A DNA stretch of 64,000 nucleotides from Candidatus Poribacteria bacterium (GCA_965232535.1 CBDDPW010000022.1:512519-576518); one strand, 5' to 3'; numbered from the stretch's first letter, positions 2,060 to 51,938 are shown. Notes: a model not told the origin generated them from the sequence alone. Made by a program: numbers and translations.

Positions 2060-2230
2060 AACCTTTGGTGCTAGTTAATTGGTACATGATTTTCAATGAC
2101 ATACTATATCTAGGTTGTTAGCAGGTCAGGTAGGCGCAACATTTGTCAACCGCGCATAATCGCACATCATCGTGTCAGTATATAGTATGTCATTTATGAT
2201 TTAAATACTACATATACTAGCACCATTGGT
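2060..2230 (-). mobile_element. MITE-like ~170-bp element, copy 1 (reverse orientation)
   Basis: Near-identical reverse complement of the elements at 5569-5738 and 18744-18913. Imperfect 15-bp terminal inverted repeats (ACCAATGGTGCTAGT / ACCTTTGGTGCTAGT). Flanked by TATTA on both sides, with a 1-nt boundary ambiguity. No coding capacity. Confidence 0.75.
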
Positions 2231-2975: not shown

Positions 2976-3722
2976 CAGCCTTTTTGTACGTCTCACCCTC
3001 CTCTCTCCATGAACAACCCGACCCACCCACCGGACCGAATCTCCAAAATAAAACATCGCCTGCGCCAGTCCCGCTTTCTTTCGATCTTTATGGGATGCCC
3101 CTATCCGGCGCCGCGCTGGTCGAAAGCCGTGAAAAAGGTCTTGGGTGAACTCGGTCCGGAGGCAAAAATCCTTGATCTGGGGTCGGGGCTTGATCGGCGC
3201 ACGCCGAACACGATTAACCTCGAAATCGAAGCAACGCCGAATGTAGATGTGCTCGGGGACGGGCATAGGCTGCCGTTCAAGGATGCGGTTTTCGACGCCG
3301 TCATCTCGGAAGCCGTGCTTGAGCACGTGCAAGATCCGAATCGTGTCGTCTCGGAAATGCATCGCGTTCTGAAACCCGGCGGGTATGTGTGCGCCGCGGT
3401 GCCGTTCCTGCAGGGGTTTCACGCCTCGCCGCACGATTACCAGCGTTACACGGTGCCAGGATTCAATCATCTGTTTTCGGCGTTTGCGCAAATTGAGAGC
3501 GGAGCGTGTGCGGGACCGACGACGTCGTTGCACTGGATCTTCCGGGAGTATGTGGGACTGCTTTTCTCGTTCGGGAATCTGTTGTTGGCGAAGCTGATTT
3601 CGCTGATTATGGGGTGGATTACATTTCCAGTGGTTTGGCTGGATTATCTTTTGATGCGGAACAGGCATGCGCATATTTTGGCGTCGGCGGTGTATTTTAT
3701 TGGCAGGAAGGGGGAGAGGTAG
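2961..3722 (+). CDS. class I SAM-dependent methyltransferase (Methyltransf_11-like) with hydrophobic C-terminal segment
   Basis: Motif I LDLGSGLD and the post-I acidic and DAVIS..VLEH..D motifs are typical of small-molecule/UbiE-type MTases. The true start is probably internal (MNNPT at 3008 or MGCPY at 3092). The C-terminal ~60 aa are hydrophobic. Confidence 0.7.
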   Translation: MRTAHQPFCTSHPPLSMNNPTHPPDRISKIKHRLRQSRFLSIFMGCPYPAPRWSKAVKKVLGELGPEAKILDLGSGLDRRTPNTINLEIEATPNVDVLGDGHRLPFKDAVFDAVISEAVLEHVQDPNRVVSEMHRVLKPGGYVCAAVPFLQGFHASPHDYQRYTVPGFNHLFSAFAQIESGACAGPTTSLHWIFREYVGLLFSFGNLLLAKLISLIMGWITFPVVWLDYLLMRNRHAHILASAVYFIGRKGER

Positions 3723-3889
3723 AAAGGATTGTCTGAATCGCGGATTAAGAGGATTACGCAGATTACGCGGATTAAAACCAGAGCACATTTTTGCGTCGGC
3801 GGTGTATTATGTTGGTGGGAAGGGAGAGTGGTAGAAGAGCTTGTCTGAATCGCGGATTAAACAGATTAGGCAGATTACGCGGATTAAAT
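3672..3889. repeat. tandem duplication (2 x ~106-112 bp) spanning the 3' end of the methyltransferase gene
   Basis: 3672-3777 and 3784-3889 are ~85% identical (..ttttggcgtcggcggtgtatt..gtctgaatcgcggattaa..gattacgcggattaaa). Each copy carries internal GATTA(C/G)GC sub-repeats. Copy 1 contains the MTase stop codon. Confidence 0.75.
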
Positions 3890-4061: not shown

Positions 4062-5569
4062 ATGAACGGGCAAAAAAAGAAAATCGAAGATGCGCTGCAC
4101 CAATTCGCCGACGGTGACCTCGCCGACAACGCGAAACACCTTCTCAATGTCCTCGGCACGAAAGCGGACGAACCATGCGTCTTAGACCGAACGCCGCCGA
4201 GAGATTTCTTGAAGTTTTCAATCAAGATCCAGAGCGTCGCATGAACCCGGATAGGGCTCTGACGAAAAAATGGAAATCTATTGACCTTCTGTTTCAGTTG
4301 ACGGAGGAGGAAATCAGTAACAATCCCAATCTTGAGATTGACTTCGGAGGCGGCGGCATTGACAAGACGCGCATGGAATCCTACCTCTTTTTCGCCATCA
4401 AGCTAAGCGGTGGCCATTACACGCGGACACAACTGTCCCAGATTACGCGCGAAATCAACAAACCGTTCGACATGCCGGCAATGATTCTCTTTCAACACGG
4501 TGAGGCGCTCACCTTTGCTGTGATTGACCGCCGTCTCAACAAGCGCGACGAATCCAAAGATGTCCTCCTGAAGGCAACGCTCATCAAAGACATCAACGCC
4601 GCCGATCCCCACCCCGCCCACATTCTAATACTGTTCGACCTCTCAATTGCCAAGCTGCACGAGAAATACAGGTTCAGAAACTTTGAGCAACTTCATGAGG
4701 CATGGAAGAAGACGCTGGACACATCGGAACTCAACAAACGATTTTACGAAGAAATTGCTAACTGGTATTTCTGGGCTGTCAATGAGGTGACGTTCCCGGA
4801 CGGTGCCGAGAAGAACAAGGAAATTCGCAACGCGACCAGCGTTATACGGCTAATAACACGCCTGATTTTCGTCTGGTTCATCAAGGAAAAGGGGTTGGTA
4901 CCCGATGCTCTATTCAATGAAACGAAGATTCAAGAGCTTCTTGTCAACACCGACCTACGGGAGTGCACCTACTACAAGGCAATTCTTCAGAACCTGTTCT
5001 TCGCCACGCTGAATCAGGAAATGAACACGAAGAAAATGAACACGCCAACAAAATCCGATAACCGCAAATTCAGAAATCGGGCTAAGCACTCCAATGGACG
5101 TGATCAAAACTACATGGTGCATTCCTTGTATCGGTATGAGAAATTCTTCAGCGACAAGGATGAAGCTCTCGCTTTGTTTGACAAAATACCTTTTCTTAAC
5201 GGTGGTCTTTTCGAGTGTCTTGACAAATTTCTAGAAAACGAACACGAAAACGGAGGTACGAAGGAAATCCGGATTGACGGCTTTTCCGACAATAAAAAGA
5301 ACAAATTGGACGTGCCCAATCTTCTGTTTTTCTCTGACAAGAAAATCATTGACCTCAACGCTGCCTACGGCACAAGGAACAAGCAATATGAGGTACGCGG
5401 GCTAATTCACATTCTTGACAGTTACAAGTTCACCGTCACCGAAAACACTCCGATAGAGGAGGAAGTGGCGCTTGACCCGGAACTATTGGGAAGAGTGTTT
5501 GAAAACCTTCTCGCCGCTTACAATCCAGAAACCGGTGCGACTGCCCGCAAGTTGACCGGCTCCTATTAA
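4062..5569 (+). pseudogene. N-terminal fragment of a type IIG restriction-modification enzyme / BREX PglX-like protein, disrupted by a frameshift at ~4118-4244 and truncated by a MITE insertion at 5569
   Basis: The 464-aa ORF 4175-5569 has MmeI/PglX-like N-terminal-half motifs (LIFVWFIKEKGL, IPFLNGGLFE, LDPELLGRVFENLL). It ends ...ARKLTGSY* exactly at the MITE boundary. The YYTPREIV motif X continues on the other side of the MITE. ORF 4062-4244 overlaps in another frame (both frames open across 4118-4244). This suggests a frameshift, or alternatively a separate tiny ORF. Confidence 0.7.
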
Positions 5570-5738
5570 CCAATGGTGCTAGTATATGTAGTATTTAAAT
5601 CATAAATGACATACTATATACTGACACGATGATGTGCGATTATGCGCGGTTGACAAATGTTGCGCCTACCTGATCTGCTAACAACCTAGATATAGTATGT
5701 CATTGAAAATCATGTACCAATTAACTAGCACCAAAGGT
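5569..5738 (+). mobile_element. MITE-like ~170-bp element, copy 2, inserted inside the type IIG RM gene
   Basis: Identical to copy 3 except for 1-2 nt. Flanked by a TATTA direct repeat (5564-5568 and 5739-5743). Removing the element plus one TATTA restores the in-frame sequence GSYYTPREIV. The element supplies an in-frame ATG (5697) and a TTGACA box. Confidence 0.85.
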
Positions 5739-8084
5739 TATTACACGCCGCGCGAGATTGTCAACTACATGACCGATGAATCGCTGATTGCGTACCTGAA
5801 GAATGAATTCATCGCCTATCGTGAATCCGAAAGTGCATTCGCTCCCGCTACGCCGCCCTCACAGATAGATTTCAGCGGACAGACAGAACCCATACAGACT
5901 CAGCTTGATATGGGTACGGTAGTCCTATCCAATGAACAAAAAGAGGCGATAGAGAGCGATCTCCGCGCGCTGATTTCGTACAAAGGTCAGCCGCGCAAAT
6001 TCACTACAGGCGAAACGCAAACCCTGATAAAAGCCATTGACGGGCTAAAGGTTCTCGACCCGGCGTGCGGTTCGGGCGCATTTCCGATGGGCGTACTGCA
6101 AAAACTGGTGTTCGTTCTGGGAAGGCTAGACCCGCGCAACGAGGAGTGGAGACAGCGGCAGATTGACAAAGTTCGACACACCATTAAAACTGCCGAAGAG
6201 ATTGAAGATAGCACGGTACGTGAAAATACTATCCGTGATCTTGAACGCGAAATTGACAACATCAACGACGCCTTCGAGCGGAATGAACTCGACTACGGAC
6301 GCAAACTCTACCTAATTGAAAACTGCATCTACGGCGTGGACATCCAACCCATCGCCGTCCAAATCTCTAAACTCCGCTTCTTCATCTCGCTCGTCGTCGA
6401 TCAGAAGATTGATAGAGAGCGCGAAAATCTCGGCGTGCGTCCCCTGCCCAATTTGGAAACAAAGTTTGTGGCGTCGGACGCCCTAATTGATGTGGAAAAG
6501 CCTACCCAAATCGAGATTCGCAACCCGCACGTTGTGCGTAAAGAGAAGGAATTATCGGAGGTGCGTCGGAAACACTTTACCGCTCGGACGCCCCCAACGA
6601 AGAAAAAGTATCGAGATTTGGACACCGCTCTCCGCTCCGAACTCAGCGAGTTGCTCAAACGCGACGGTTTCCCCGATGACACGACCGAAAAAATCGCATA
6701 TTGGGATCCTTACGACCAGAATACATGCACAGATTGGTTTGATCCGGAATGGATGTTCAATACTAAGAACGGGTTTGATGTAGTGATTGGTAACCCCCCT
6801 TATGTTCAATTACAAAAAAACGGCAGTAAATTAGGGCGTTTGTATGAACCGTGCAATTTTGACAGTTTCACGAAGACAGGGGATATTTACTGTCTGTTCT
6901 ATGAGAAAGCGAATCAGTTGTCAAGAGACGGTGGACATGTCTGTTTTATCACATCCAACAAATGGCTGCTCACCGCATATGGGAAAGCGTTGCGAGATTA
7001 CCTTGTAAGACAAACCCAACCTGTTCAACTACTGGACATGGGACCGGGTGTGTTTGACGCGACTGTGGATACCAACATCCTACTGTTTCAAAACACGGCG
7101 CGCGATCTTCGCGCGACGCTCAGAGCAACAACCATCCGAGCCGACTTTGACGCACATACTGATAACATCGCCCAATATATGGGCAATAACGGTGTGGCGA
7201 TGGAACTACCCCCCAAAGGCAAGCCGTGGACAATCTGCTCTCCAGCTGGACTTGCCCTGAGATACAAGATAGAAGACGTTGGCATACCACTGAAAAAGTG
7301 GGATGCAAAAATCTACTACGGAATAAAAACAGGCTGCAACGAAGCGTTTTTCATAGACGAAGTCAAGCGAGAAGAATTGGTGAAGCAAGACCCGAAATCA
7401 GTCGAAATCATCAAACCACTTCTGCGTGGGCGCGACCTTAAACGCTACCATGTCCATCGGTCACAGTTGTATATGCTAGCAACCGGTTACGATTTAGACA
7501 TTCCAACTAAGTATCCCGCCGTCTACAATCATCTCCAAACATTGGGAAGCCAAATAGAATTGGGGAAGATGAAGGTAAGAGGCAAAGGGCTATTCAATAG
7601 AGATGATCAGGGAGAGAATTGGTGGAACCTCAGAGCTTGTGCATACTATTCCGCGTTTGAAAAAGAGAAGATTATTTATCCCAACATGACTAAGTTTCTA
7701 CCATTCGTTTACGACGTGAGGGGGTTTTATACTAATGATAAGAGTTTTATCATTACAAGCGGAAACTATCTGAAATATCTTACAGGCTATTTTAACTCAA
7801 GAATCGCAGCAAGATGGGTTCGCGAAAACTGCCCGGAATTACAAGGTGGGACGAGAGAATTGAGAAAAGTATTTTTTGAGAATATCCCCATTCCCCGTGT
7901 CACAGAAGCGAACCAACATCTTGTCGCGACGATTGAAGAGCGAGTTGACGGAATTCTCGCCGCTAAACGTACAAATCCAGATGAGGACACAACCGCGCTT
8001 GAAAAAGAGATTGATGAGATAGTATACTCATTGTACGATTTATCGCCTGAAGAAATTGCGATTGTGGAAGAAGCGGTGGATTGA
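5697..8084 (+). CDS. C-terminal fragment of type IIG RM / PglX-like enzyme: complete gamma-class N6-adenine DNA methyltransferase domain plus target-recognition region. The ORF begins at a MITE-provided ATG
   Basis: Carries motif X (GYYTPREIV), motif I (LDPACGSGAFPMGVL) and motif IV (VIGNPPYV). About 450 aa of C-terminal TRD-like sequence follow. It is continuous in frame with the upstream fragment if the MITE is removed. Confidence 0.75.
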   Translation: MSLKIMYQLTSTKGYYTPREIVNYMTDESLIAYLKNEFIAYRESESAFAPATPPSQIDFSGQTEPIQTQLDMGTVVLSNEQKEAIESDLRALISYKGQPRKFTTGETQTLIKAIDGLKVLDPACGSGAFPMGVLQKLVFVLGRLDPRNEEWRQRQIDKVRHTIKTAEEIEDSTVRENTIRDLEREIDNINDAFERNELDYGRKLYLIENCIYGVDIQPIAVQISKLRFFISLVVDQKIDRERENLGVRPLPNLETKFVASDALIDVEKPTQIEIRNPHVVRKEKELSEVRRKHFTARTPPTKKKYRDLDTALRSELSELLKRDGFPDDTTEKIAYWDPYDQNTCTDWFDPEWMFNTKNGFDVVIGNPPYVQLQKNGSKLGRLYEPCNFDSFTKTGDIYCLFYEKANQLSRDGGHVCFITSNKWLLTAYGKALRDYLVRQTQPVQLLDMGPGVFDATVDTNILLFQNTARDLRATLRATTIRADFDAHTDNIAQYMGNNGVAMELPPKGKPWTICSPAGLALRYKIEDVGIPLKKWDAKIYYGIKTGCNEAFFIDEVKREELVKQDPKSVEIIKPLLRGRDLKRYHVHRSQLYMLATGYDLDIPTKYPAVYNHLQTLGSQIELGKMKVRGKGLFNRDDQGENWWNLRACAYYSAFEKEKIIYPNMTKFLPFVYDVRGFYTNDKSFIITSGNYLKYLTGYFNSRIAARWVRENCPELQGGTRELRKVFFENIPIPRVTEANQHLVATIEERVDGILAAKRTNPDEDTTALEKEIDEIVYSLYDLSPEEIAIVEEAVD

Positions 8085-8455
8085 GTAACTGGTATACTGA
8101 TGCGTGAAGAAGGGCAAATCAGATAAAGATGGCGTCACCTTCCATAATCCGTAATTTAGTCAATGGCTAAAAAGACAGGGCACGAGATTGTCTTACGAAA
8201 AGCGATAGCGATACAACGCTAAGGGGATGGAAATAAATAACCTTTCAATATACGCCAAACCGTGCTATGCCCTGCGCTATTAAACCCCCAAAACTGGTGA
8301 AATGTTATTCTTTTCCAGCCCCTAACTGTAGAATTTGCTTGAACAATCTTATCGAGCGCCTCACGTAGTGCGATAGTCAATTGTGATAACGCAGGGAAAA
8401 TCATAGGCACTTGGCAATCGTGTGGTGATACGGCACCGATTGTGGAGGTATCAGT

Positions 8456-11098
8456 ATGAATGAAAGAGAATATGCAGGGGCTAAGTGGTGGAAATTTGAT
8501 TTTCATACTCACACACCTGCCTCGGAAGACTTCAGTCAAAGCGGAGTTTCACCTGAATCTTGGTTGAAAGCATTCATGGATGAGGGAATTGATTGTGTCG
8601 CGATTACCGACCATAACAGCGGCGGCTGGATAGACCACTTGAAGAATAAGTTGCAGGAATTGGCCAGCAGCCAGTCCGATTGGTACCGACCCCTGTATCT
8701 GTTTCCGGGGGTGGAAATCTCAGCAAATGGCAACGTGCATATTTTAGCGATATTTGGACATGAGAAGCATAAGAGCGATATCGATCAGTTGCTTGGTGCG
8801 GTTAGTTATTCGGGGACAAAGGGCAAAAGCGATGCAGTAACGAACACGACCGTTACCGAGGTCGTCAATGCAGTTGCGGAACAGGGAGGTATCCCTATTC
8901 CGGCGCATGCCGACACTGCCAATGGGTTGTTTAAACTGCAAGGACTAACATTGGACAATGCGATGGATAATCCCAACCTCTACGCGATGGAGTTATGCGA
9001 CACCGATTACCAAAAGCCCCAACTGTATACTGACATGAAGGTGCGGTGGACTGAAGTCCGAGGCTCCGATACGCATAACTTCAGCGACAGTGCATTTGGT
9101 ACGTTTACCTGGATTAAAATGGATAAACCTTCCATTAACGGATTGAAGCTAGCGCTGATTGATGGAACCGTCTCCGTTAATCGCAAAATGCACGCTGACC
9201 CCAACCGGCACGCGCCGCACTATCTAGAGGAACTCAAAATATGCAAAGCAAAACACATTGGCCGTACAGAGCCCCTCAATTGCAGATTTAGCCCCTTTCT
9301 TAACGCTATAATTGGTGGACGCGGAAGCGGTAAGTCCACATTGGTGGAATTCATGCGCCTAAGCCTGCAGCGCGTTGCGGAACTTCCGGAGTCACTAGAA
9401 AAAGGAACCCGTCAGTATTTTGATGTGAAGGAGGTTAACAGCTTACTGATTGAGAACAGCACGATTTCGCTAATCTATCGCAAAGGTGAGGTGCGGTACC
9501 GGTTGAAATGGTCAGCCGAAGCGGGTAGCACCTCTTTGGAGGAGGAAAAAGATGGCATTTGGAAACCTAGCCCCGGAGAAATACATTCGCTATTTCCTGT
9601 ACGAATTTATAGCCAGAGGCAAATCCTTGAACTAGCAAATGATACAGGCGCGCTGATTCAAGTTATTGATGAAGCGCCCGAAGTTGACTCTTGGACGTTT
9701 AAGACACAACACACGGATTTGGTCAACCAGTACAAACAGATTGAAGGTGAACAAAGAGAACTGAAGCATAAAATTTCCCACGAAAATCGGCTACAAGGAG
9801 AGTCAAACGACCTCGCACGGCAGATTGAGCAAATAGAAAAATCTGGGCACGAGGCTGTACTGCGAAATTTTAGTAAACGGCAGAGGCAGTTAAGCGAGAT
9901 TGACAGCTTGGAAGGAAAATGGAAAGAGATGAGTTGTCGTCTTGCTGACACGCTGCATGACATTACCCCGGCGCATTTCGATAAGCAGCATTTTGCCGAC
10001 GATACCGATATTCTTTCGGTTTTACAAAAAACAAACGAAAAATGGCAAACGATTCAAGACCAATTAGACCAATTGGTACAAGACGCTCAATTATCTATTC
10101 ACAACTGGAATACTGAAAAGAGTGCTGCAGACTGGATGCGACGCCTCAAGACAGATATGAAAAAGTACGAGTCTTTGTCCTCGGAAATGAAACAGCATAA
10201 TATTGATCCACAGCAGTACCCTTGGCTATTGACGAAACAGAAAAGTATACAGACGGAATTGAATCTCATTGCCGATTATCGTTCGCAGTGGCAAGAATTG
10301 GAACATGCGAAGAAACAAGTGTACAACCAGATAAATACAAACAGAACGAAGCTCTCGCAAAAAAGGAAAGAATTTCTAACGCGTGTTCTACGCGATAACT
10401 CTTCGGTCAGCATTGAAGTCAATCCGTTTGGCGAAGATTGGGGCGGCGAACACGGTATAGAAGAAGAGATCCGTAGAATATTACAATGCCAAGATGGCTT
10501 CGAAAAAGATATTGATGCCCTGAAAGAGGTTTATCTACGGGACGGTGGTGGAAAGGTTGAAGAACTCAAAACGGCAGTTAAAGATATTCGCGATGAAAAG
10601 CTGGCTGCCAAAGATAACCGCTTTACCCGACGTTTGCAGAACTTACCTCAAGAATCAATGATTGATTTCATCTTGTGGTTTCCCGAGGATGATTTGAAAG
10701 TTACCTTTGGCCCCAGAAATCAGCACATAGAACAGAGTTCTCCGGGACAGAAAACCGCCGCGTTGTTAGCATTTATCCTTTCCTACGGAGATGAGCCACT
10801 GTTGCTCGATCAACCTGAAGATGATTTGGATAACGAATTAATCTACAAGTTGGTTGTCAAACAGTTGCGAGGAATGAAAAGCAAAAGGCAGATTATCATC
10901 GTTACGCACAACGCCAACATAGTAGTCAACGGCGATGCGGAGATGGTTCTACCGCTTCAGGTCGGCGGTGGTGAAACCCACGTAAGGCGGGCTGCGAGCA
11001 TTCAGGAAAAAGATGTCCGGGAATCCATATGCGAAATTCTGGAAGGGGGGCGACACGCATTTGAAGAGCGCTATAAACGTATTCATTTGGGAACTTAA
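8456..11098 (+). CDS. PHP-domain phosphoesterase fused to Rad50/SbcC/SMC-like ABC ATPase (880 aa; Ppl-like defence protein)
   Basis: The N-terminus (WWKFDFHTHTPASEDF...VAITDHN...PAHADT) is a PHP metal-dependent phosphoesterase fold. A Walker A follows (IIGGRGSGKSTLVEFM). Then comes a ~400-aa coiled-coil-like insertion. The C-terminus has an ABC signature-like SSPGQKTAALLAFIL, a Walker B/D-loop LLLDQPEDDLD and an H-loop IIIVTHNAN. RBS GGAGGT lies upstream. Confidence 0.8.
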   Translation: MNEREYAGAKWWKFDFHTHTPASEDFSQSGVSPESWLKAFMDEGIDCVAITDHNSGGWIDHLKNKLQELASSQSDWYRPLYLFPGVEISANGNVHILAIFGHEKHKSDIDQLLGAVSYSGTKGKSDAVTNTTVTEVVNAVAEQGGIPIPAHADTANGLFKLQGLTLDNAMDNPNLYAMELCDTDYQKPQLYTDMKVRWTEVRGSDTHNFSDSAFGTFTWIKMDKPSINGLKLALIDGTVSVNRKMHADPNRHAPHYLEELKICKAKHIGRTEPLNCRFSPFLNAIIGGRGSGKSTLVEFMRLSLQRVAELPESLEKGTRQYFDVKEVNSLLIENSTISLIYRKGEVRYRLKWSAEAGSTSLEEEKDGIWKPSPGEIHSLFPVRIYSQRQILELANDTGALIQVIDEAPEVDSWTFKTQHTDLVNQYKQIEGEQRELKHKISHENRLQGESNDLARQIEQIEKSGHEAVLRNFSKRQRQLSEIDSLEGKWKEMSCRLADTLHDITPAHFDKQHFADDTDILSVLQKTNEKWQTIQDQLDQLVQDAQLSIHNWNTEKSAADWMRRLKTDMKKYESLSSEMKQHNIDPQQYPWLLTKQKSIQTELNLIADYRSQWQELEHAKKQVYNQINTNRTKLSQKRKEFLTRVLRDNSSVSIEVNPFGEDWGGEHGIEEEIRRILQCQDGFEKDIDALKEVYLRDGGGKVEELKTAVKDIRDEKLAAKDNRFTRRLQNLPQESMIDFILWFPEDDLKVTFGPRNQHIEQSSPGQKTAALLAFILSYGDEPLLLDQPEDDLDNELIYKLVVKQLRGMKSKRQIIIVTHNANIVVNGDAEMVLPLQVGGGETHVRRAASIQEKDVRESICEILEGGRHAFEERYKRIHLGT

Positions 11099-11100
11099 CC

Positions 11101-12321
11101 ATGTTTGACAGCCTGACTGAACTCCGTGAGAAAATATTCCTGGGTGAGGACTCAATGATTGAGTTCAAGAGAGAGTTGCCCGAACGAAAAGAACTCTCCG
11201 ATGAGATGGCGGCTTTCGCTAACGACCGTGGCGGGGTGATACTCATCGGTGTTGAAGATAACGGCGGCATCGTCGGGATTGATCGCGAGAGCTTGGAAAG
11301 GGTTGAGAAAACGGTGGTTGAAATATGCCAAGACAGCATCGATCCGCCGGTTCACATTGTGACGGAGAAGTTGTGCATTGACGAGAAGAACCTGATAAAA
11401 ATTGATGTGTCTCGCACCCCGTTTGTGCATCGATCAGCCAACGGTTATTTCATCCGTCAGGGCAGCACCAAGAGAGAGATGACCACCGAGCAGTTAGGGC
11501 GATTGTTACAAAATCGTTCGCAAGTGCATCGTATGGCTTTTGATGAACAGTTCGTGCCGAACACTCACAGAGACACATTGAGCAGATCGCTTTATCAGCG
11601 GTTTATAACCCCTGGCGTGGCTGAAGGCGAAGAGGAGAACCTGCTCCTTAAGCGGCGTTTGCTTGTCAAGGAAGGCGAGAATTACCGAGCATCCGTCGCC
11701 GGGGTGTTGATGTGTCATCACAAACCCGATGATTACCTCTATAATAGTTTCATTCAGGCGGTCTATTACAATGGCGTGGAAAAGGATGCCAACTACCAGA
11801 TTGACGCCAAGGATTTCAAGGGACCGCTGGATGAACAAATTGTGGACGCCTTCAAATTCGTTGAAAAGCACAACCAAGTGTCCGCGCGAAAGGAGATTGG
11901 CAGAATCGAGCGGCCGCAGTACAGCATGAGAGCCGTTTTTGAGGCAGTCGTTAATGCCGTCGTACACAGAGATTACTCAAAAGCTGGCTCAAAAATTCGA
12001 CTGTTTATGTTTGCGGATCGGCTGGAGCTTTATTCGCCCGGTGCGTTGGGGTACACCTTGACTGTGGAAGATTTGCCCTATAACCAAGCGACCCGTAATG
12101 AGCTCCTTGCCCGGCTACTTTCGGAAACGACGCTTGAGGACCATCTGGCAACTAAGACAACCCGGCGCCACTTTTTGGAACGCCGCGGCGAGGGCGTCGG
12201 TATCATTCTGAACGAGAGCGAGAGACTGAGCGGTAAAACGCCGGTATACGAGGTGTTTGGCGAAGAATTACGCTTGACAATCTTCGCGGCGGAATCTTTG
12301 CAAGACGACATTGCTGTCTGA
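11101..12321 (+). CDS. AlbA_2 (Schlafen-like divergent AAA) + HATPase_c_4 domain protein (putative DNA-binding / RecG-C-terminal-like ATPase)
   Basis: Starts 2 nt after the upstream stop, so it is translationally coupled. The N-terminus (IEFKREL..AFANDRGGVILIGVEDNGGIVGI) is an AlbA_2 fold. The C-terminus (AVVNAVVHRDYS...IRLFMFADRLELYSPG) is the HATPase-like module typical of this family. Confidence 0.8.
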   Translation: MFDSLTELREKIFLGEDSMIEFKRELPERKELSDEMAAFANDRGGVILIGVEDNGGIVGIDRESLERVEKTVVEICQDSIDPPVHIVTEKLCIDEKNLIKIDVSRTPFVHRSANGYFIRQGSTKREMTTEQLGRLLQNRSQVHRMAFDEQFVPNTHRDTLSRSLYQRFITPGVAEGEEENLLLKRRLLVKEGENYRASVAGVLMCHHKPDDYLYNSFIQAVYYNGVEKDANYQIDAKDFKGPLDEQIVDAFKFVEKHNQVSARKEIGRIERPQYSMRAVFEAVVNAVVHRDYSKAGSKIRLFMFADRLELYSPGALGYTLTVEDLPYNQATRNELLARLLSETTLEDHLATKTTRRHFLERRGEGVGIILNESERLSGKTPVYEVFGEELRLTIFAAESLQDDIAV

Positions 12322-12801: not shown

Positions 12802-15800
12802 ATGGCAGAAAACACCTCACTATTCCCTTCCGGTATTCGTGATAACCGCCATCGCGGCACGGTCGGCAGATTCCTGCAGGACTATATCAAAGACGGATCG
12901 TCACTCTCTATCGTCTCAGCCTACTTCACGATTTACGCCTTCGACGCCTTGAGATCGTCTTTGCTCGGAATCAATGACCTTCGCTTCCTCTTCGGCGAAC
13001 CGCGATTCATCAACCGGTTAGATCCCGAAAGAACGGAAAAGAAATCATTCATCATAGACAGCGGCGGCTTGCAGTTGACGAACCAGCTTGAACTCAAGCG
13101 GGTGGCAAGGGAATGCGCCGCGTGGATTGAAGACAAGGTCGAGATTCGCTCAATCCAAAAGGAAAACCTGCTGCACGGCAAGATGTACCACATCGACGAT
13201 ACCAACCGGGAACACGCGATTCTCGGTAGTTCCAACTTCACCGTGCGCGGCTTGGGATTGGGCGAAAGTGAAGGCAACATCGAACTCAATTTGAAGGTTG
13301 AGGACAACCGGGATGTTACCGACCTGAAACAATGGTTTAACGAACTGTGGTATGACGAGAAACAGGTCGTGGATGTTAAGGATGAAGTGTTGTCCTACCT
13401 TAATCAACTCTATGAGAATTACGCGCCGGAGTTCGTCTACTACAAGACGCTTTATCATCTCTTTGAGCGGTACTTGAGCGATCAGGAGGGGTGGGGCCTG
13501 CTGGACACACCGCCGCAACTCGTCGACACGCAAATCTGGAACGCGCTCTACGGTTTCCAGAAGGACGGCGTAAAAGGGGCAATCAACAAAATCCTGACGC
13601 ACAACGGCTGTATTATCGCAGACAGCGTCGGCTTGGGAAAGACATACGAAGCCCTTGCGGTGATAAAATACTTTGAACTGCGCAACGAAAACGTGCTGGT
13701 GCTATGTCCCAAGAAACTACGAGAGAACTGGACCATCTACCCTGCATATACGGGCAACACACTCAATCCCTTCCCAAATGACCGCTTCGGCTATACCGTT
13801 CTCTCGCATACTGACCTGAGCCGGGCGGACGGCATGTCGGGGGATGTGGATCTGTCGTCGTTCAATTGGGGTAATTACGGTCTGGTGGTTATTGACGAGT
13901 CGCACAATTTCCGAAACAACACCCCCGGAAAAAAAGATCGGGACGGCAACCTGATACGCTTGAGCCGCTACAAACGGCTGATGGATGACATTGTCAAGAG
14001 CGGCGTAAACACCAAGATGCTGTTGCTGTCCGCGACGCCGGTCAACAACGATCTACGCGATCTGCGCAACCAACTTTACTTTCTTACAGAGGAACGCGAC
14101 GACGCTTTCAAGGATTCACTCGGCGTCGCCAATCTGAGAGAAACCATCTCAAGCGCCCAAACCGCCTTCAACAAGTGGGCAAAGCAGGAGGGGACGCGCA
14201 GCAGCCAGAATCTGCTGGAAGAACTGAGTACCCACTTCTTCAGACTGCTTGACGGTTTGACCATCGCGCGGTCGCGGAAGCAAATTCAAAAATACTACCC
14301 CGACTCGATGAGAGAATTGGGCGGCTTCCCGAAACGCGGCAAGCCCGAATCCATCTATACCAAAATAGATCTCAAGGATGAGTTCCTGTCTTACGACGCG
14401 CTGAACGATGAGATTTCCGAGTATCAACTGTCGCTCTACAATCCGACCAAATATCTCCGACCCGAACACGAGTCCGAATACAACTTGGAGTTGGTAAAAA
14501 ACTTTACGCAGATTGACCGTGAGCACTTCCTGATTGGCATGATGAAGGTAAACTTCCTCAAACGCTTGGAGAGCTCCGTCCACTCCTTCAAGATTACGCT
14601 GGAGCGTACGCTTGATAAGATTGAAAAGTTGGAGGAACGTATCCGGCGGTTTCAGGAGTTCCGCGACGAAAACCCCGACCTCGATCCGGCGGAGATGGAG
14701 ATTGACGCCGGTGATGACGAAGACCTGCAAGCGGCTTTGGAGGTGGGGAAGAGCCTGAAATTCAAGACGGCGCACCTTGACGTGGAGCGGTGGTTGGAGG
14801 ATTTGCGGCAGGACAGAGAACAGCTTGAGCGCCCCCTCCGCTCCGCGGAAAAAGTCAACCCGGCCCGTGACGCAAAGCTCACCAGACTGAAGCAGTTGAT
14901 TCGAGAGAAAGTTAAGAATCCTTCAACCACCAAGCGTGGAACTCTAAATCGAAAGGTATTGGTATTCACCGCCTTTGCGGATATCGCCGACTACCTCTAC
15001 GGGGAGTTGCATGAATGGGCGCAGACGGAATTGGGCATCCGTACCGGGATGGTGACGGGGGGCACCATGCCCAACAGAACCACCCTGGGCAAAACCAACT
15101 TTGTCGACATCCTTACCAATTTCTCGCCAATTGCGAAGAACCGGAGCAGCGATAGGGAAATGCTTCAGGACGAGGAAATAGACCTACTCATCGGCACGGA
15201 TTGTATCTCGGAAGGCCAGAACCTGCAAGACTGCGACTACCTGATCAACTACGACATCCACTGGAATCCGGTGCGCATCATTCAGCGCTTCGGACGGATT
15301 GACCGTATTGGAAGCGTCAACAACCGAGTTCATTTAGTGAACTTCTGGCCCACCCCCGACCTGAATCGTTACATCAACCTGAAAAATCGGGTTGAAGCGC
15401 GGATGGCGCTGGTGGATGTCACGGCTGCGCAGGGAGATAACCTGCTTGACCCCGACGCGCTCTCCGAAGCCATTGAAGGGGACCTCAAATACCGCGACCA
15501 ACAACTCCTGAAACTTCAAGAGGAAATCCTTGACCTTGAAGAGTTTGACGAAAACGTCTCCCTCAACGAGTTCACGCTTGACGATTTCCGTATGGAACTC
15601 ATCAGGTACATCGAAAGCAACAAAAAGAAACTTGAGGAGGCGCCTTTCGGGCTTTACGCCGTTGTGCCTCCGCCCGCGGGAGATCCGATAATTAAACCCG
15701 GTGTTATCTTTTGCCTCAAACAGAAATCGAAGTCGGAGGAGAACGAAAAGTTGAATCCGACCCATCCCTACTTCCTGGTCTACGTTCGAGAGGAAGGCGT

Positions 15801-16206
15801 CGTGCGGTTTACGTTTGCCCAGCCGAAGCAAATCCTTGAGATGTACCGTCAATTGTGTGAGACGAAGACCAGTCCGTATGACGAACTCTGTGCGTTGTTC
15901 GATGAACACACGGAAAACGGCGCCGACATGTTGGGTTACGACAAACTACTCCGGGAAGCCGTTAAATCCATTTCGCATACCTACGAGAAGCGCGCTTTCA
16001 CCAATCTTCGATCCGGTCGCGGCGGGGTATTGCCGCTCGAATCCGAGCAGGTTGGCGACACGACGGATTTTGAGTTAGTGACGTGGTTGGTGATTAAGGA
16101 CGAATCGTCTCCCATGAAGCTGAATGAGCTTCTGGATCAAGTGACAGAGTACAATATTCATGGCGAAGTTGACACCGGTTCTCCGGTGGGGCGTGAAGAA
16201 TGGTAA
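12802..16206 (+). CDS. PLD-family nuclease / SNF2-family helicase fusion with MazE-like antitoxin C-terminal tail (1134 aa)
   Basis: N-terminal HKD motif (HGKMYHIDD...GSSNFT). SNF2 motifs: I GLGKTYEAL, II VIDESHNFRN, III LLSATPVNN, V/VI QRFGRIDRIGS. The last ~45 aa (PMKLNELLDQVTEYNIHGEVDTGSPVGREEW) closely resemble the C-terminal half of MazE/PemI antitoxins (..[28 protein letters not shown]). Confidence 0.85.
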   Translation: MAENTSLFPSGIRDNRHRGTVGRFLQDYIKDGSSLSIVSAYFTIYAFDALRSSLLGINDLRFLFGEPRFINRLDPERTEKKSFIIDSGGLQLTNQLELKRVARECAAWIEDKVEIRSIQKENLLHGKMYHIDDTNREHAILGSSNFTVRGLGLGESEGNIELNLKVEDNRDVTDLKQWFNELWYDEKQVVDVKDEVLSYLNQLYENYAPEFVYYKTLYHLFERYLSDQEGWGLLDTPPQLVDTQIWNALYGFQKDGVKGAINKILTHNGCIIADSVGLGKTYEALAVIKYFELRNENVLVLCPKKLRENWTIYPAYTGNTLNPFPNDRFGYTVLSHTDLSRADGMSGDVDLSSFNWGNYGLVVIDESHNFRNNTPGKKDRDGNLIRLSRYKRLMDDIVKSGVNTKMLLLSATPVNNDLRDLRNQLYFLTEERDDAFKDSLGVANLRETISSAQTAFNKWAKQEGTRSSQNLLEELSTHFFRLLDGLTIARSRKQIQKYYPDSMRELGGFPKRGKPESIYTKIDLKDEFLSYDALNDEISEYQLSLYNPTKYLRPEHESEYNLELVKNFTQIDREHFLIGMMKVNFLKRLESSVHSFKITLERTLDKIEKLEERIRRFQEFRDENPDLDPAEMEIDAGDDEDLQAALEVGKSLKFKTAHLDVERWLEDLRQDREQLERPLRSAEKVNPARDAKLTRLKQLIREKVKNPSTTKRGTLNRKVLVFTAFADIADYLYGELHEWAQTELGIRTGMVTGGTMPNRTTLGKTNFVDILTNFSPIAKNRSSDREMLQDEEIDLLIGTDCISEGQNLQDCDYLINYDIHWNPVRIIQRFGRIDRIGSVNNRVHLVNFWPTPDLNRYINLKNRVEARMALVDVTAAQGDNLLDPDALSEAIEGDLKYRDQQLLKLQEEILDLEEFDENVSLNEFTLDDFRMELIRYIESNKKKLEEAPFGLYAVVPPPAGDPIIKPGVIFCLKQKSKSEENEKLNPTHPYFLVYVREEGVVRFTFAQPKQILEMYRQLCETKTSPYDELCALFDEHTENGADMLGYDKLLREAVKSISHTYEKRAFTNLRSGRGGVLPLESEQVGDTTDFELVTWLVIKDESSPMKLNELLDQVTEYNIHGEVDTGSPVGREEW

Positions 16207-16553: not shown

Positions 16554-16689
16554 CTATTTGGCTCAAGTAACAAATCAAGGTGTTTTCAAGGTCGTTGGGT
16601 GCGCCGACAGAACGTGCTGTGGTAGCATCTCATCATTCCTTTCGGGATGATTCATTCAGCAAGCACCACTCGTTTTTCAATCCTCGGTT

Positions 16690-17557
16690 AGCTTTGAAAA
16701 AGCGTTCCTTAATAGCGCGCCATTATCCCTGTCGGAATAATTCTTTCAGCAAGTAACTACCTCACATTTCCATGTAGGAGGGGCATCTTGCCCCGACGGT
16801 TTGTCTATAGCGCACATTATCCTTGGCGGAATAATTCTTTCAGCAAGTAACACTCATCTTCGGATCTATGACAGGCTTTGGGGAGGTGTTCCTTCGTAAA
16901 ATGCTTTTCACTCCAGAGGATCAAGCGACTGAATAGGGAGCGCGATAGTAAATCCTATGCAATGTCAATAGAATCGCGGTGTCTCCCAATCTCCGCGCTC
17001 CAGCGGAGCGCAATGTGTCTAGCGCATCATCAAGTGTCACTCATATTTCGTTCTATGGCTAGCTCTGAAAAAGTGTTACTTGGTAGCGCCCCATTATCCC
17101 TGTCAGGATAATTCATTCAGCAAGTAACACTCATTTTTCGCTCTATGACAGGTTTTGAAAAAGCGTTCCTTCGTAGAATGGTTTCACTCCAGAGGAGTGA
17201 GATGTCAATAGAACACGATTCCCCATCGCGTCTGCACTCCAGAGGAGTGCAATGTGGAGTGTTACTTGAGAGCGTGCCATTATCCCTGTCGCGATAATTC
17301 TTTCAGCAAGCAACACTCTTGTACCGCAAACTGTCAGTTTGTGATCACAATTCATCAGCGGTACACGTTCATTTTTCGCTCTATGGCTGGCTTTCCGAGA
17401 GTGTTACTTGATAGCGCGCCATTATCCCTGTCGGAATAATTCTTTCAGCAAGCAACACTCTTGTACCGCAAACTGTTAGTTTGCGATCGCAATCCATCAG
17501 CGGTACACGTTCATTTTTCGCTCTATGACTGGCTTTCCGAGAGTGTTACTTGATAGG
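16690..17557. repeat. array of nested palindromic REP/MITE-like units (family A: GTGTTACTTG-N-CCATTATCCCTGTCGGAATAAT-N-CAAGTAACAC), including two tandem ~142-bp composite units (17269-17556)
   Basis: Full family-A units occur at 17073-17130, 17269-17316 and 17401-17458. Degenerate copies lie at 16718-16776 and 16806-16853, and a truncated copy at 17540-17556. The units are interleaved with other palindromes (CACTCCAGAGGAGTG, CAAACTGTCAGTTTG, GCGCTCCAGCGGAGCGC). The spacers are not unique. Confidence 0.8.
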
Positions 17558-18547: not shown

Positions 18548-18667
18548 TTGTTTGGGCGTTTACCTCAATTTAACGACTTCTCGCGATATTTTCAATCGTA
18601 GCGAAATCGTTGTCAAGTTTTAATCGAGATTGATTTCGCTTTGGTGATGGAGATTGTGCCAAAAAGG

Positions 18668-18700
18668 AATGGTGAGCCGTGCCCACCCTACTACAAGCAA
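18668..18700. repeat. REP-B family variant (AATGGTGAGCCGTGCCCACCCTACTACAAG)
   Basis: Matches the AATGGTGGGCAGTGCCCACCCTACA.. consensus seen at 51893 and 59066. Confidence 0.5.
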
Positions 18701-18743
18701 TACGCATCTGATTTTGCATTGACAACTTTACACGTGTATAGTA

Positions 18744-18913
18744 ACCAATGGTGCTAGTATATGTAGTATTTAAATCATAAATGACATACTATATACTGAC
18801 ACGATGATGTGCGATTATGCGCGGTTGACAAATGTTGCGCCTACCTGACCTGCTAACAACCTAGATATAGTATGTCATTGAAAATCATGTACCAATTAAC
18901 TAGCACCAAAGGT
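18744..18913 (+). mobile_element. MITE-like ~170-bp element, copy 3
   Basis: Full-length copy flanked by a TAGTA direct repeat (18739-18743 and 18914-18918). Same TIRs as copies 1 and 2. Confidence 0.85.
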
Positions 18914-19117
18914 TAGTATGATAAGGAACGGACTAATAAGTTGCGGAGTGGATGCGCTACTCTTCAAATTGCCGATTTCCCGTGTTCGAACGGGGCGGCG
19001 CTTCGGCTTCGCGCGTACTTAAAAACCTGTTTGAAATGCCGTTTCGAGTAAAATCATGCGTGTCGAAACCGAGTTTTTTCTTCAAAACTTGGTTTCTTTC
19101 TCGCACAATTCTGTAGG

Positions 19118-19245
19118 ATCAACCGACTGAATAGGGAGGGCGATAGAGATCCTTCAACCGACTGAATAGGGAGGGATCAAGTGAGTGAATAGCGAACGCG
19201 ATAGAGATCCTTCAACCGACTGAATAGGGAGGGCGATAGAACTCC
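19118..19245. repeat. tandem ~35-bp repeats (TCAACCGACTGAATAGGGAGGGCGATAGAGATCCT), 3.5 units with one nested variant unit
   Basis: Head-to-tail units with no spacers. Related single units lie at 16919-16952, 19770-19838 and 27440-27476, and in reverse orientation at 33181-33198 and 58911-58975. Confidence 0.7.
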
Positions 19246-19699
19246 CCTGCGCACCTGACAAATCGTGCGTTTCAAACAGGCTTTAAGAGTGACCTTTATG
19301 GCGACGAACTTTTTTTCTGTTAACATCTTGTTCACATTTGCTTACCTATGGACCCACGCTATCAAAGGAAAGTACTGAATCAAACCATGTGAACACCCTC
19401 TTGAAATCATGCCTCCGTTCACATTTTTGTACCTATATTTTGGGGAATTTTACAAGAGAAATAGGTACAAGTTCAGCCGAAAACGTCCGAAATGGGTAGT
19501 AGATCGGCATTTTGTTCACATTTTCGAGTTCTTGAGCGACAGAACAAGGGGCAATCAAAGGACCGTGAACATCTACTGATTTTATACACCTTCCACTCCG
19601 ATGATGTTGTAGTGTGAAGGGCCCATGAAGCCGCAAACAGCCGCCATGGTTAGTTTGAACGCGAGGCCGATGAAGTGATTTCAGATGCTTTTTCCTATA

Positions 19700-20165
19700 G
19701 AGCATGCCATTATCCCTATTGGAATACTTCTTTCAGCAAGTAACTGCCTCACATTTCCATGTAGGAGGGAATCAAGCGAACGGATAGTGAGTAATCAAGT
19801 GAATGGATAACGAACGCGATAGAGCTCCCATAAAGATCTTCTTGCCCCGACGGTTTGTCTATAGCGCACATTATCCTTGGCGGAATGATTCCCTCATCAA
19901 GCGACACTCAACTCTCGCTCTGTGACTGGTTCCGAAAGAGTGTTACTTGGTAGCGTACCATTGTCCCTGTCGGAATAATTCTTTCCACAAGTAACATTCA
20001 CGGGTAAAGGTTCTTAGCCCCAGCGGGGCGGCAGGTGTATAGAAAACCGGAATCCCATAGAAACCTAGCCCCAGAGGGGCGACACGTGTATAGAAATCGA
20101 GAGTGTTACTTGAGAGCGTGCCATTATCCCTGTCGGGATAATTCTTTCAGCAAGTAACACATATG
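19700..20165. repeat. second cluster of family-A palindromic units, with a segmental duplicate of 16718-16860 and 42-bp tandem hairpin repeats
   Basis: 19706-19905 duplicates 16718-16860 with a ~70-bp insertion inside the GGGGCATCTTGCCCC hairpin. Family-A units lie at 19938-19997 and 20103-20160. Tandem TAGCCCCAG(C/A)GGGGCG..TGTATAGAAA units lie at 20015-20100. Confidence 0.7.
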
Positions 20166-20229
20166 CTACAATAATGAGGTTTGGTTTAGGCATTGCAAAG
20201 ACGGAAATTTTCTTGGTGTTTGTAAACCC

Positions 20230-20418: not shown

Positions 20419-21825
20419 ATGAAAAGACGGCGTAAAACCGGCATTTCGAGAAAAGGACGATTCAAAGAACGTCCTCCTACCCAAGAGATTCAAGACGTGA
20501 ACGCTCTTGAACAAATAAATTATAACGCGGCAGGTCTCGACATCGGAGACGCTGAAATTTATGCCGCTGTCCCTGAAGGACGAGATAAAGACTGTGTGCG
20601 AGTCTTTAAGACTTTTACCGAAGACCTCCATCTCTTAGTGGATTGGTTACAGCATTGTTGCGTGACCACGGTGGCGATGGAATCAACAGGTATCTACTGG
20701 CTTCCAATCTATGAAATGCTTGAAGCACGCGGCTTTGAAGTGTATCTGGTGAATGCGCGTCATATTAAAAACGTTAGCGGTAAGAAGACTGACATCGAAG
20801 ATTGTCAATGGATACAGCAGTTGCATACCTATGGGCTGCTTTCGACTTCATTCCGCCCGGCTGAAGAGATTTGTGCCTCGCGCTCATTGGTGAGACATCG
20901 AGCCAATCTAATCGCTATGTGCTCGACACAAGTGCAGCATATGCAGAAGGCATTGCAACTGATGAATCTTAAGCTGACCAACGTCATCTCAGACATTACC
21001 GGTTTGACAGGCATGCGTATCATCAGAGACATCGTCAAGGGTGAACGCGATGCCCACCAATTGGCAGCCCATCGTGATGAGCGATGTACCAAAAGTGAAA
21101 AAGAGATTCGCAAATCTCTTGAGGGCAATTACAAGTCCGAACATGTGTTCGCCCTCAAGCAAGCGTTGCAAGCCTACGATTTTTATCAGCAGCAAATCAG
21201 CGATTGTGATGTAGAAATCGAAAAGTTTTATCAGAGGATTGAACCCCAGATTGACATCAAAGCGCACCCATTGCCGGAGAGTCAAAGAAAGCGGCGGCGT
21301 CCAAAGGGGAATGAGCCCTGTTTTAATTTGCGTCAACATCTGTATCAACTGAGCGGGGTAGATCTCACTCAGATTGAGGGAGTCAATGTGCTCAATGCAC
21401 AAGCGATATTGAGTGAAATCGGCATCGATATGAGCAAATGGCCTTCAGTCAAACATTTCACCTCCTGGCTGGGTTTATGTCCGAACAACCAAATCACGGG
21501 TGGCAAAGTGATGCAGCGTCAAACGCAGAAAAACAACAATCGTGCGGCACGCGCTCTGAGGCTGGCGGCGCAAGGCGTGTCAAATAGCAAAGGCGCCCTC
21601 GGCGGTTATTATCGTCGTCAGCGAGCGAGGCTCGGTCCTGCTCAAGCCATCACGGCAATCGCTCATAAACTCGCACGTATTATCTATGCCATGTTGAGAA
21701 ATCGGACGCCCTACCGTGAACCTCCTTCCGGCTACTATGAAGAACAGGCTCGCCAAAGGGCGGTTAAAAACCTGAAACGCAAAGCCAATCAGTTGGGATT
21801 TCATTTGGTTGCACAAGCAGCTTAA
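20419..21825 (+). CDS. IS110-family transposase/recombinase (DEDD N-terminal domain + Transposase_20 C-terminal domain)
   Basis: LDIGDAEIYAAV..., MESTGIYWLPIYEMLEARGFEVYLVNARHIKN and a C-terminal ...WLGLCPNNQITGGK... are IS110-family hallmarks. The N-terminal 30 aa of the 468-aa ORF are probably 5' UTR, so the true start is likely internal. Confidence 0.9.
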   Translation: MKRRRKTGISRKGRFKERPPTQEIQDVNALEQINYNAAGLDIGDAEIYAAVPEGRDKDCVRVFKTFTEDLHLLVDWLQHCCVTTVAMESTGIYWLPIYEMLEARGFEVYLVNARHIKNVSGKKTDIEDCQWIQQLHTYGLLSTSFRPAEEICASRSLVRHRANLIAMCSTQVQHMQKALQLMNLKLTNVISDITGLTGMRIIRDIVKGERDAHQLAAHRDERCTKSEKEIRKSLEGNYKSEHVFALKQALQAYDFYQQQISDCDVEIEKFYQRIEPQIDIKAHPLPESQRKRRRPKGNEPCFNLRQHLYQLSGVDLTQIEGVNVLNAQAILSEIGIDMSKWPSVKHFTSWLGLCPNNQITGGKVMQRQTQKNNNRAARALRLAAQGVSNSKGALGGYYRRQRARLGPAQAITAIAHKLARIIYAMLRNRTPYREPPSGYYEEQARQRAVKNLKRKANQLGFHLVAQAA

Positions 21826-27379: not shown

Positions 27380-27575
27380 TACCATTTCTCTTGAATAACA
27401 GTGCGTATCATGTCTGAATCATATCGTTCACTTTCTACGTAGGCGGGGATCAAGTGACTGAATAAGGAACGCGATAGAGATCCCATCTTGCCCCGCCTTG
27501 AAAGAACTTGATTGACGCTATTAATGCACTGCGAATGTAGAGAAATGGTATAACATCTTGGGTAGTGGAGAGTAC

Positions 27576-33020: not shown

Positions 33021-33223
33021 TTCGGCAATGCCTTCGGTGTTAAAGCGGGTTTGAATATAGTTGCATAGTAATGCGTGCACATTTGAGTTGTTATCACTTG
33101 TGAGATTTCGGTAGCATTCGTAATTAGACGCTCCTATTGCACTTGTTTGGGAAGATTTTTAAGGCATATCTATTGCGCCCGCTATTCACTCGCTTGATCG
33201 CAACGAGCATACTCTGAAAAACT

Positions 33224-33238
33224 GTGGGCAGTGCCCAC
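33224..33238. repeat. REP-B family partial copy (GTGGGCAGTGCCCAC)
   Basis: Core palindrome of the AATGGTGGGCAGTGCCCACC family. It is preceded at 33181-33198 by a reverse-oriented ATCAAG-CGAGTGAATAGC unit. Confidence 0.5.
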
Positions 33239-33281
33239 CTTACAACTTATTTGGCCCCATTTGTTCGCTTGGCTGGTCATT

Positions 33282-51730: not shown

Positions 51731-51892
51731 CCGGTTTCATCTGTAAAATTTTTCACGTTCGCGTTGAGATTCTGTTTGAAGAATAGGTGGCAAACCAATC
51801 TTAGGTCATTTGAATTGGGATATACTCATAAATTCTATCGCACAAGTATCTCTATTGCCCTCCTTTATCGGTCGGTATCGCACCTGACAAGG

Positions 51893-51938
51893 AATGGTGG
51901 GCAGTGCCCACCCTACAGTTGTAAAAAGTCAGCTCAGG
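51893..51938. repeat. REP-B family element (AATGGTGGGCAGTGCCCACCCTACAGTTGTAAAAAGTCAGCTCAGG)
   Basis: Near-identical to 59066-59112. The core is an 8-bp perfect palindrome pair, GGTGGGCA/GTGCCCACC. Confidence 0.6.

Follow-up and report, generated by a model that had tools for sequence, protein, structure and literature searches.

Pseudogenes made by MITEs (miniature inverted-repeat transposable elements) are well known, and the breaking of a gene by such an insertion is an ordinary event; in the genome of Anabaena sp. 90, which is rich in restriction-modification (RM) genes, 15 of the 147 MITEs lie in disrupted open reading frames (ORFs) and the resulting pseudogenes are documented (PMC3542288). 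Here we describe a stretch of 64,000 nucleotides from a Candidatus Poribacteria bacterium (CBDDPW010000022.1:512519-576518; hereafter the window, to which positions refer unless a related locus, L001 and so on, is named). In it a MITE divides the gene for a large DNA methyltransferase into a detached N-terminal half, ORF464, and a C-terminal half, ORF795. We consider it likely that this is a recent knock-out of a defence gene by the MITE together with a frameshift, and that the ORF left downstream is incidental. Like the MITEs of Anabaena sp. 90 (77-541 bp; PMC3542288), the element is non-coding, multi-copy, bounded by terminal inverted repeats, able to form a strong hairpin and inserted in an ORF, making a pseudogene, and the RM gene content of such genomes is a further likeness to the present case. 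It differs from them in that a long ATG-started ORF remains downstream, its family matched nothing in the three collections scanned and no parent insertion sequence was found.

PADLOC labels the gene REase_MTase_IIG. However, when the gene is set against the type IIL/IIG enzymes MmeI (PDB 5HR4), DrdV (7LO5) and BpuSI (3S1S), the D...(D/E)XK triad is not conserved in the N-terminal domain among 95 homologues, and the PADLOC type IIG profiles give no match before residue 328 of the 464-residue N-terminal ORF. The top PDB matches to the C-terminal half, searched with a family profile, are CamA, M.BseCI and M.TaqI (E-values of 9e-39, 2e-31 and 1e-6). Like this half, they comprise a catalytic core followed by a C-terminal target recognition domain (TRD). 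All three are by nature solitary or Type II enzymes, whereas ORF795 is a fragment lacking about 500 upstream residues and, unlike them, has long insertions between motifs X and I and between motifs I and IV.

By its size, terminal inverted repeats, target-site duplications (TSDs), copy number and lack of coding capacity, the inserted element is a real MITE. Three copies are present in the window (Table 1); A and C are identical and B differs from them by one base (identity at least 99.4%). With no more than one difference between copies, transposition must be recent, and the activity of the MITE is thus very recent. Copy B has a GC content of 36%, compared with 50% for the window. Its 15-nt terminal inverted repeats, ACCAATGGTGCTAGT and ACCTTTGGTGCTAGT, match at 13 of 15 positions, and a perfect 15-bp inverted repeat lies inside the element (5605-5619 and 5690-5704). 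The core 15-mer/9-mer has six occurrences in the window against 0.06/0.14 expected by chance. All inward reading frames of the element stop within 58 nt. Copy A, which is missing from the matching spacer in L001, L002 and L004, lies in the divergent spacer between groES and a dsRBD gene, about 375 nt upstream of groES, and its end with the outward ORF and promoter-like sites points toward groES.

The MITE family appears to be undescribed, with nothing matching in the three collections scanned. No further TGGTGCTAGT was found in the window or in 91 loci, and the core of the terminal inverted repeats was absent from the fetched loci. The 20-mer GGTGCTAGTATATGTAGTAT is absent from the GTDB representative genomes and matches the JGI metagenomes once, by chance, within coding sequence on a TARA contig; IMG/VR does not contain the internal inverted-repeat pattern. 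Across these three collections and the fetched loci, neither a parent insertion sequence with the same terminal inverted repeats nor a copy outside the window was found. An IS110-family transposase gene (20419-21825; NCBIfam, 266 bits) lies 1.5 kb from copy C within a repeat-rich stretch (16.6-20.2 kb) and shows no relationship to the MITE in its terminal repeats.

The MITE divides a gene of about 1280 codons between the two Tyr codons of motif X. The TAA stop of ORF464 is formed by the TA of the TSD and the first base of the element. Removal of 5569-5743, that is, the element plus one TATTA, gives a 1244-codon ORF that is 71% identical to P0001 (1266 aa) over 100% of its length, with no gap at the junction, and that is collinear without gaps with intact homologues of 1240-1270 aa. 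The signature TGS[YF]YTPREIV is present in 23 of the 23 full-length homologues aligned, and likewise across 95 full-length homologues. An earlier note on this DNA had described the two ORFs with these ends and had held that deleting the element with one TATTA yields a continuous motif X. We reproduced the former, and the gap-free comparison with homologues bears out the latter.

Relatives free of the MITE agree with this restoration. L001 to L004 carry a single TATTA and no element: their blastn alignments stop precisely at 5568/5739, the two segments overlapping by 5 bp on the subject side, and the empty site of L004, GACCGGCTCCTATTACACGCCGCGCGAG, is base for base the restored window sequence. 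L001, L002 and L004 share with the window the gene order groEL-groES, dsRBD gene, methyltransferase-11 gene and large methyltransferase gene, and the sites are therefore orthologous. With empty-site controls in four relatives, the locus is a clean example in which a recently active MITE has disabled a defence gene. For annotation it holds a caveat. A second in-frame ATG at 5712 gives a 790-aa product identical to P0122 (sources NCBI and ENA), and the 790- or 795-aa product resembles a normal methyltransferase yet is a fragment.

Table 1. Positions of the features discussed, in the window unless a related locus is named.
Feature	Position	Strand	Remarks
MITE copy A	2061-2230	-	groES/dsRBD-gene spacer; TSD TATTAA at 2055-2060 and 2231-2236
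First 32 codons of original gene	4062-4157	+	MNGQKKKIEDALHQFADGDLADNAKHLLNVLG; aligns to N-termini of intact homologues
1-nt deletion (T)	4157/4158	+	frameshift -1; original frame then runs to a stop at 4244
ORF464, detached N-terminal half	4175-5569	+	464 aa; ends ...RKLTGSY, then stop
Left TSD TATTA	5564-5568		Tyr-Tyr codons TAT TAc; from empty-site alignment
MITE copy B	5569-5738	+	170 bp; terminal inverted repeats 5569-5583 and 5724-5738; TTGACA 5650-5655
ORF795, C-terminal half	5697-8084	+	795 aa; starts MSLKIMYQLTSTKGYYTPREIV; 14 residues MITE-encoded
Right TSD TATTA	5739-5743		from empty-site alignment
Motif X, now KGYYTPREIV	5739-5762	+	in ORF795
Motif I, DPACGSGAF	6057-6083	+	in ORF795
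Motif IV, GNPPY	6789-6803	+	in ORF795
TaqI_C TRD	about 7413-7892	+	in ORF795
Ppl/TrlF-type PHP-ABC ATPase	8456-11098	+	intact; PADLOC Ppl E 5e-150; NCBIfam TrlF 568 bits, cut-off 350
Schlafen AlbA_2 + HATPase_c_4 gene	11101-12321	+	also adjoins PLD-SNF2 gene in L089 and L091
PLD(HKD)-SNF2 helicase-nuclease	12802-16206	+	1134 aa, intact; orthologues near methyltransferase gene in other loci
HxK motif of PLD-SNF2 protein	13174-13200		
GSSNF of PLD-SNF2 protein	13225-13239		
GLGKT of PLD-SNF2 protein	13630-13644		
DESH of PLD-SNF2 protein	13894-13905		
QRFGRIDRIG (motif VI) of PLD-SNF2 protein	15283-15312		
MITE copy C	18744-18913	+	TSD TAGTA at 18739-18743 and 18914-18918
Methyltransferase gene with ISL3 interruption	L004 6616-11669		
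TIR-TPR genes	L002 11976-14509; L003 11962-14079; L004 11908-14400; L093 13929-17909; L089 12880-17631		

A second lesion lies at the start of the gene. The original start at 4062 is preceded by GGAGA 9 nt upstream. The N-terminal pattern of the homologues, MN..KKKIE.AL..F..G.LA.NA..LLN.LGY.S.RTM.L.PNT., is followed in frame 0 up to ...NVLG and then continues in a different frame. DNA alignment places ctcggc-acgaaagc of the window against ctcggcTacgaaagc of L004, and L001 and L002 have kept the T as well. The N-terminal frameshift that had been noticed near 4118-4244 is thus real and can be pinned to the loss of this one base, which affects codon 33; ORF464 consequently lacks the first 38 residues.

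The MITE, the frameshift or both could be artefacts of assembly or consensus calling, or alleles of a minority in a mixed population whose dominant genotype is intact. The source is apparently a metagenome assembly, and assemblers may be misled by a repeated element such as this one. However, an independent assembly (ENA ERZ26168041, contig ctg83518; L095) aligns to window positions 4138-12248 with 0 mismatches and 1 gap and contains the MITE as well as the T deletion, although the coverage of that contig is just about 2x. In addition, a mis-join between repeats would leave neither a perfect 5-bp duplication nor an ORF restored in frame, and the missing T lies outside any homopolymer run. From the sequence data a simple assembly artefact is unlikely, and we consider it very improbable that the dominant genotype is intact.

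The striking position of the insertion has a mechanistic reason. The three TSDs (TATTA, TAGTA and TATTAA) indicate a TA-N-TA preference. The restored gene of 3848 bp contains 10 TANTA sites and a single TATTA, which is formed by the conserved Tyr-Tyr codons of motif X, TAT-TAC. The element was inserted at motif X because it prefers a TATTA-type target, and functional selection is not needed. The insertion exactly at motif X was thus confirmed as a position, while the special meaning attached to it is lost to target-site preference, and selection was rejected as its cause.

In the gene itself, Pfam identifies Eco57I (3.5e-37) and TaqI_C (3.2e-11), that is, one chain holds a gamma-class N6-adenine methyltransferase followed by a TRD. 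Residues 1-300 of the N-terminal half match no family in Pfam, NCBIfam or PADLOC, with only sub-threshold hints of DUF4391 and MmeI_hel. The AlphaFold model of ORF464 (pLDDT 75) comprises an alpha/beta domain followed by a helical domain, and a Foldseek search of the model against the PDB returned nothing better than E 0.1. The fold of the first domain may be weakly restriction-endonuclease-like and DUF4391-like. The helical domain, of about 300 residues, matches chains of PglX, HsdM and MmeI and is of the HsdM_N, PglX or MmeI-spacer type. No helicase or translocase motif was found in the N-terminal half. The description of this half as nuclease- or translocase-like is therefore weakened, as it has neither translocase motifs nor a conserved nuclease motif.

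A separate gene is the likely source of the restriction activity. An intact PLD(HKD)-SNF2 helicase-nuclease gene lies in the window, and a gene of this kind (product of about 1100 aa) is found within 5 kb of the methyltransferase gene in 9 of the 13 loci examined. It is downstream in the window and in L001, and upstream in L086, L087/L088, L089, L090, L091, L092 and L094; in L087 and L092 the stop and start codons of the two genes overlap. The proteins of the other loci are 27-77% identical to that of the window, and the loci come from Poribacteria-like, Gemmatimonadota, cyanobacterial and Bacteroidota sources. Canonical type IIG/IIL enzymes are not known to need such a partner. Of the proposal that the gene is type IIG- or PglX-like, the gamma-class methyltransferase, the TRD and the PglX-like helical domain stand; against it, a separate PLD-SNF2 gene usually accompanies the gene. 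The frequency of that pairing also speaks against a self-contained, suicidal restriction enzyme. The most fitting reading of the broken gene is that it encodes the methyltransferase/specificity subunit of an RM-like system that comprises several genes and probably depends on ATP, and whose nuclease and motor are, from the sequence, likely the separate PLD-SNF2 protein. The whole looks like an under-described RM-like system of two genes, sometimes three with Schlafen, that PADLOC files as a single-chain type IIG enzyme; at these loci, members of the "type IIG" family usually come with a PLD-SNF2 helicase-nuclease.

Parts of this arrangement have been described. That a "type II RM" gene and a PLD-SNF gene can occur as a pair is mentioned in passing (PMC9881135), and HKD-SNF2 effectors with N6 methyltransferases are known from DUF499-centred systems (PMC12839542). 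We rejected assignment to the latter, the Type-2 BR or Hma systems: the HKD-SNF2 helicase and the methyltransferase are present, but the DUF499 ATPase and DUF3780 were not found, with no match among the scanned window ORFs or the Pfam domains listed for the related loci. The methyltransferase also differs from theirs in its TaqI_C TRD and its N-terminal half, and PADLOC HmaA is weak on the helicase (5.7e-20). Assignment to BREX with PglX/BrxX (8C45, 9EWZ) was rejected since no BrxA, BrxB, BrxC, PglZ or BrxL genes lie nearby; the NCBIfam BREX/PglX models score 72, 63 and 53 bits against cut-offs of 500, 400 and 900, the first being BREX_1_MTaseX. DISARM was likewise rejected, with a partial DrmMI of 88 bits, DrmD at 145 bits against a cut-off of 610, and no match to DrmA or DrmB (DUF1998) among the window ORFs scanned (4-24 kb).

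ORF795 contains motifs X, I and IV and the TRD, as had been claimed from the sequence; the motif positions and Pfam agree. Its expression signals are weak. The TTGACA that the earlier note had seen upstream of the new ATG exists, but it lacks a partner, no acceptable -10 hexamer being present 16-18 nt downstream, and we rejected it as a promoter. Promoter-like sites in the region number 8, against 6.5 +/- 2.7 in shuffled sequences, which is chance level, and those inside the element reach a quality of 9/12 at best. No Shine-Dalgarno sequence precedes the ATG at 5697 or that at 5712, while one is found at about half of the 22 window gene starts inspected, including the original start of the split gene. 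The ATG at 5697 belongs to the right arm of the element's perfect 15-bp stem; the element folds at -48 kcal/mol, which leaves the start codon base-paired in read-through RNA. Of the element's six combinations of orientation and frame, just one stays open from an ATG to the end of the element, so about one insertion in six should create an outward ORF. The MITE does supply an ATG that opens a 795-codon ORF, but this new start is an accident of about one in six and has no Shine-Dalgarno sequence. The sequence suggests that ORF795 probably gives little protein, if any. Because the insertion is so young, the intact ORF is no sign of purifying selection.

If the locus is a recent knock-out, a non-autonomous MITE bounded by terminal inverted repeats and targeting TA-N-TA would have transposed into the one TATTA of the gene. 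The target would be the large methyltransferase/specificity subunit of a defence system, with a restriction-endonuclease-like N-domain, an HsdM/PglX-like helical domain, a gamma-class N6-adenine methyltransferase and a TaqI_C TRD in this order, and the nuclease and motor would reside in the separate PLD(HKD)-SNF2 protein. The insertion and the one-base deletion in codon 33 would be two disabling lesions that make a pseudogene, the 795-codon ORF would be a by-product of the single open outward frame of the element, and the locus would simply lose its RM function. Losing the specificity subunit would be harmless if the partner nuclease needs it for targeting, a dependence we infer by analogy with Type I and III systems; ORF795 would go unexpressed, and the loss of the subunit would be neutral. 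Several points weigh against this account. ORF795 is complete, with its motifs and TRD kept, the C-terminal half is untouched by both lesions, and its best PDB sequence matches are stand-alone enzymes, by analogy with which a methyltransferase of this layout can exist alone. The promoter-like site at 5594-5622, of quality 9/12, would yield a transcript with an unsequestered start codon. A Shine-Dalgarno sequence is missing at several other genes of the window too, so that its lack here does not settle the matter.

Some of these points speak for a solitary N6-methyladenine (m6A) methyltransferase: ORF795, or its 790-aa form from the ATG at 5712, might be expressed by read-through or from a MITE promoter such as the weak site at 5594-5622, with its specificity kept and uncoupled from restriction. 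Motif X is regenerated as KGYYTPREIV, the insertion is found in two assemblies, and M.TaqI begins just about 20 residues before its own motif X. Against such an enzyme stand the unpartnered TTGACA, the lack of a Shine-Dalgarno sequence, the start codon held in the stem in any read-through RNA, and an insertion too recent for ORF integrity to show selection. The helical domain of about 300 residues would be left behind, and in PglX, HsdM and MmeI such a domain sits directly ahead of the catalytic domain. The upstream frameshift would moreover favour transcriptional polarity, and the closest relative, L004, destroyed the methyltransferase domain itself. We regard expression of a solitary enzyme as unlikely. 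About as unlikely is that the MITE, through its ATG and the regenerated G-Y-Y-T-P-R-E-I-V, turned a PLD-SNF2-coupled subunit into such an enzyme. If true, this enzyme would still mark the old recognition site with restriction off, in a one-step, transposon-made route from defence to an epigenetic orphan enzyme. The earlier proposal of a route to an orphan, specificity-retaining methyltransferase is possible given the intact motifs and TRD, but is not favoured by the weak expression signals. Were ORF795 shown to be active, it would exemplify a simple way in which orphan methyltransferases can evolve; the sequence holds nothing in favour of this. Alternatively, ORF464 and ORF795 might both be made and reassemble non-covalently, with the methyltransferase/specificity subunit and PLD-SNF2 restriction still working. 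The split falls at the boundary of the helical and catalytic domains and the partner gene is intact, but the break lies inside conserved motif X rather than in a linker, ORF464 has lost its first 38 residues to the frameshift, and the expression problems of ORF795 apply equally. We hold this to be the least probable outcome of all.

The fate of the gene in the closest relative is consistent with a knock-out. The allele of L004 is the closest, with 88% identity, and there an ISL3 transposase gene follows directly after NPPY (motif IV). The lineage thus appears to tolerate complete loss of the methyltransferase, and its sequences show no need to keep the gene. Loss of this defence gene would be recurrent in a Poribacteria-like lineage, through a MITE in one case and ISL3 in the other. 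The PNPase of the organism described here has 85% identity to that of an uncultured MAG and 72-74% to those of Candidatus Poribacteria MAGs. The L004 gene has an additional frame break near codon 137; coverage of the contig is about 2x, so a sequencing error is possible there.

The neighbours of the broken gene in the window are groESL, the dsRBD gene, the methyltransferase-11 gene and the Ppl, Schlafen and PLD-SNF2 genes. The Ppl gene sits between the methyltransferase and PLD-SNF2 genes. It is missing in L001, L002 and L004, and the spot downstream of groESL is therefore a variable defence island; a fixed association of Ppl with the methyltransferase was rejected, since these loci are syntenic. 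In every locus without a PLD-SNF2 gene, one or two TIR-TPR genes lie directly downstream of the methyltransferase gene, and L089 has TIR-TPR as well as PLD-SNF2. The TIR-TPR proteins may be an alternative effector or merely share a defence island. In L087, an inverted partial TaqI_C ORF and then a Phage_integrase gene (12862-14673) lie directly downstream of the methyltransferase gene, the layout of the recombinase-driven, shufflon-like TRD-switching locus described in PMC9881135.

The window contains further repeats. A tandem duplication of 106 nt (86% identical; 3671-3888) takes in the methyltransferase-11 gene's 3' end together with the spacer lying upstream of the broken gene; in L002 (11781-11832) and L004 (11663-11773), relatives of about 50-110 nt are located downstream of the methyltransferase gene. 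A second small repeat family consists of seven copies of a unit of about 78 nt (TTACTTGATAGCGCGCCATTATCCCTGTCGGAATAATTCTTTCAGCAAGTAAC...) at 16631-17540 and 19692-20183, with relatives in L004 at 1370-1610. Short intergenic tandem clusters of the 35-nt repeat GGATCAAsCGACTGAATAGGGAGsGCGATAGAGATCC are found at 16918-16977, 19096-19266, 19772-19828 and 27427-27504. A palindromic unit resembling repetitive extragenic palindromes, GGTGGGCAGTGCCCACCCTACAA, lies between genes at 18654-18705, 33192-33245, 51879-51930 and 59038-59103. Finally, positions 54357-58835 encode an internalin-like leucine-rich-repeat protein of 1492 aa built from 66-nt tandem repeats (at least 11 units); eukaryote-like repeat proteins of this kind are typical of Poribacteria.

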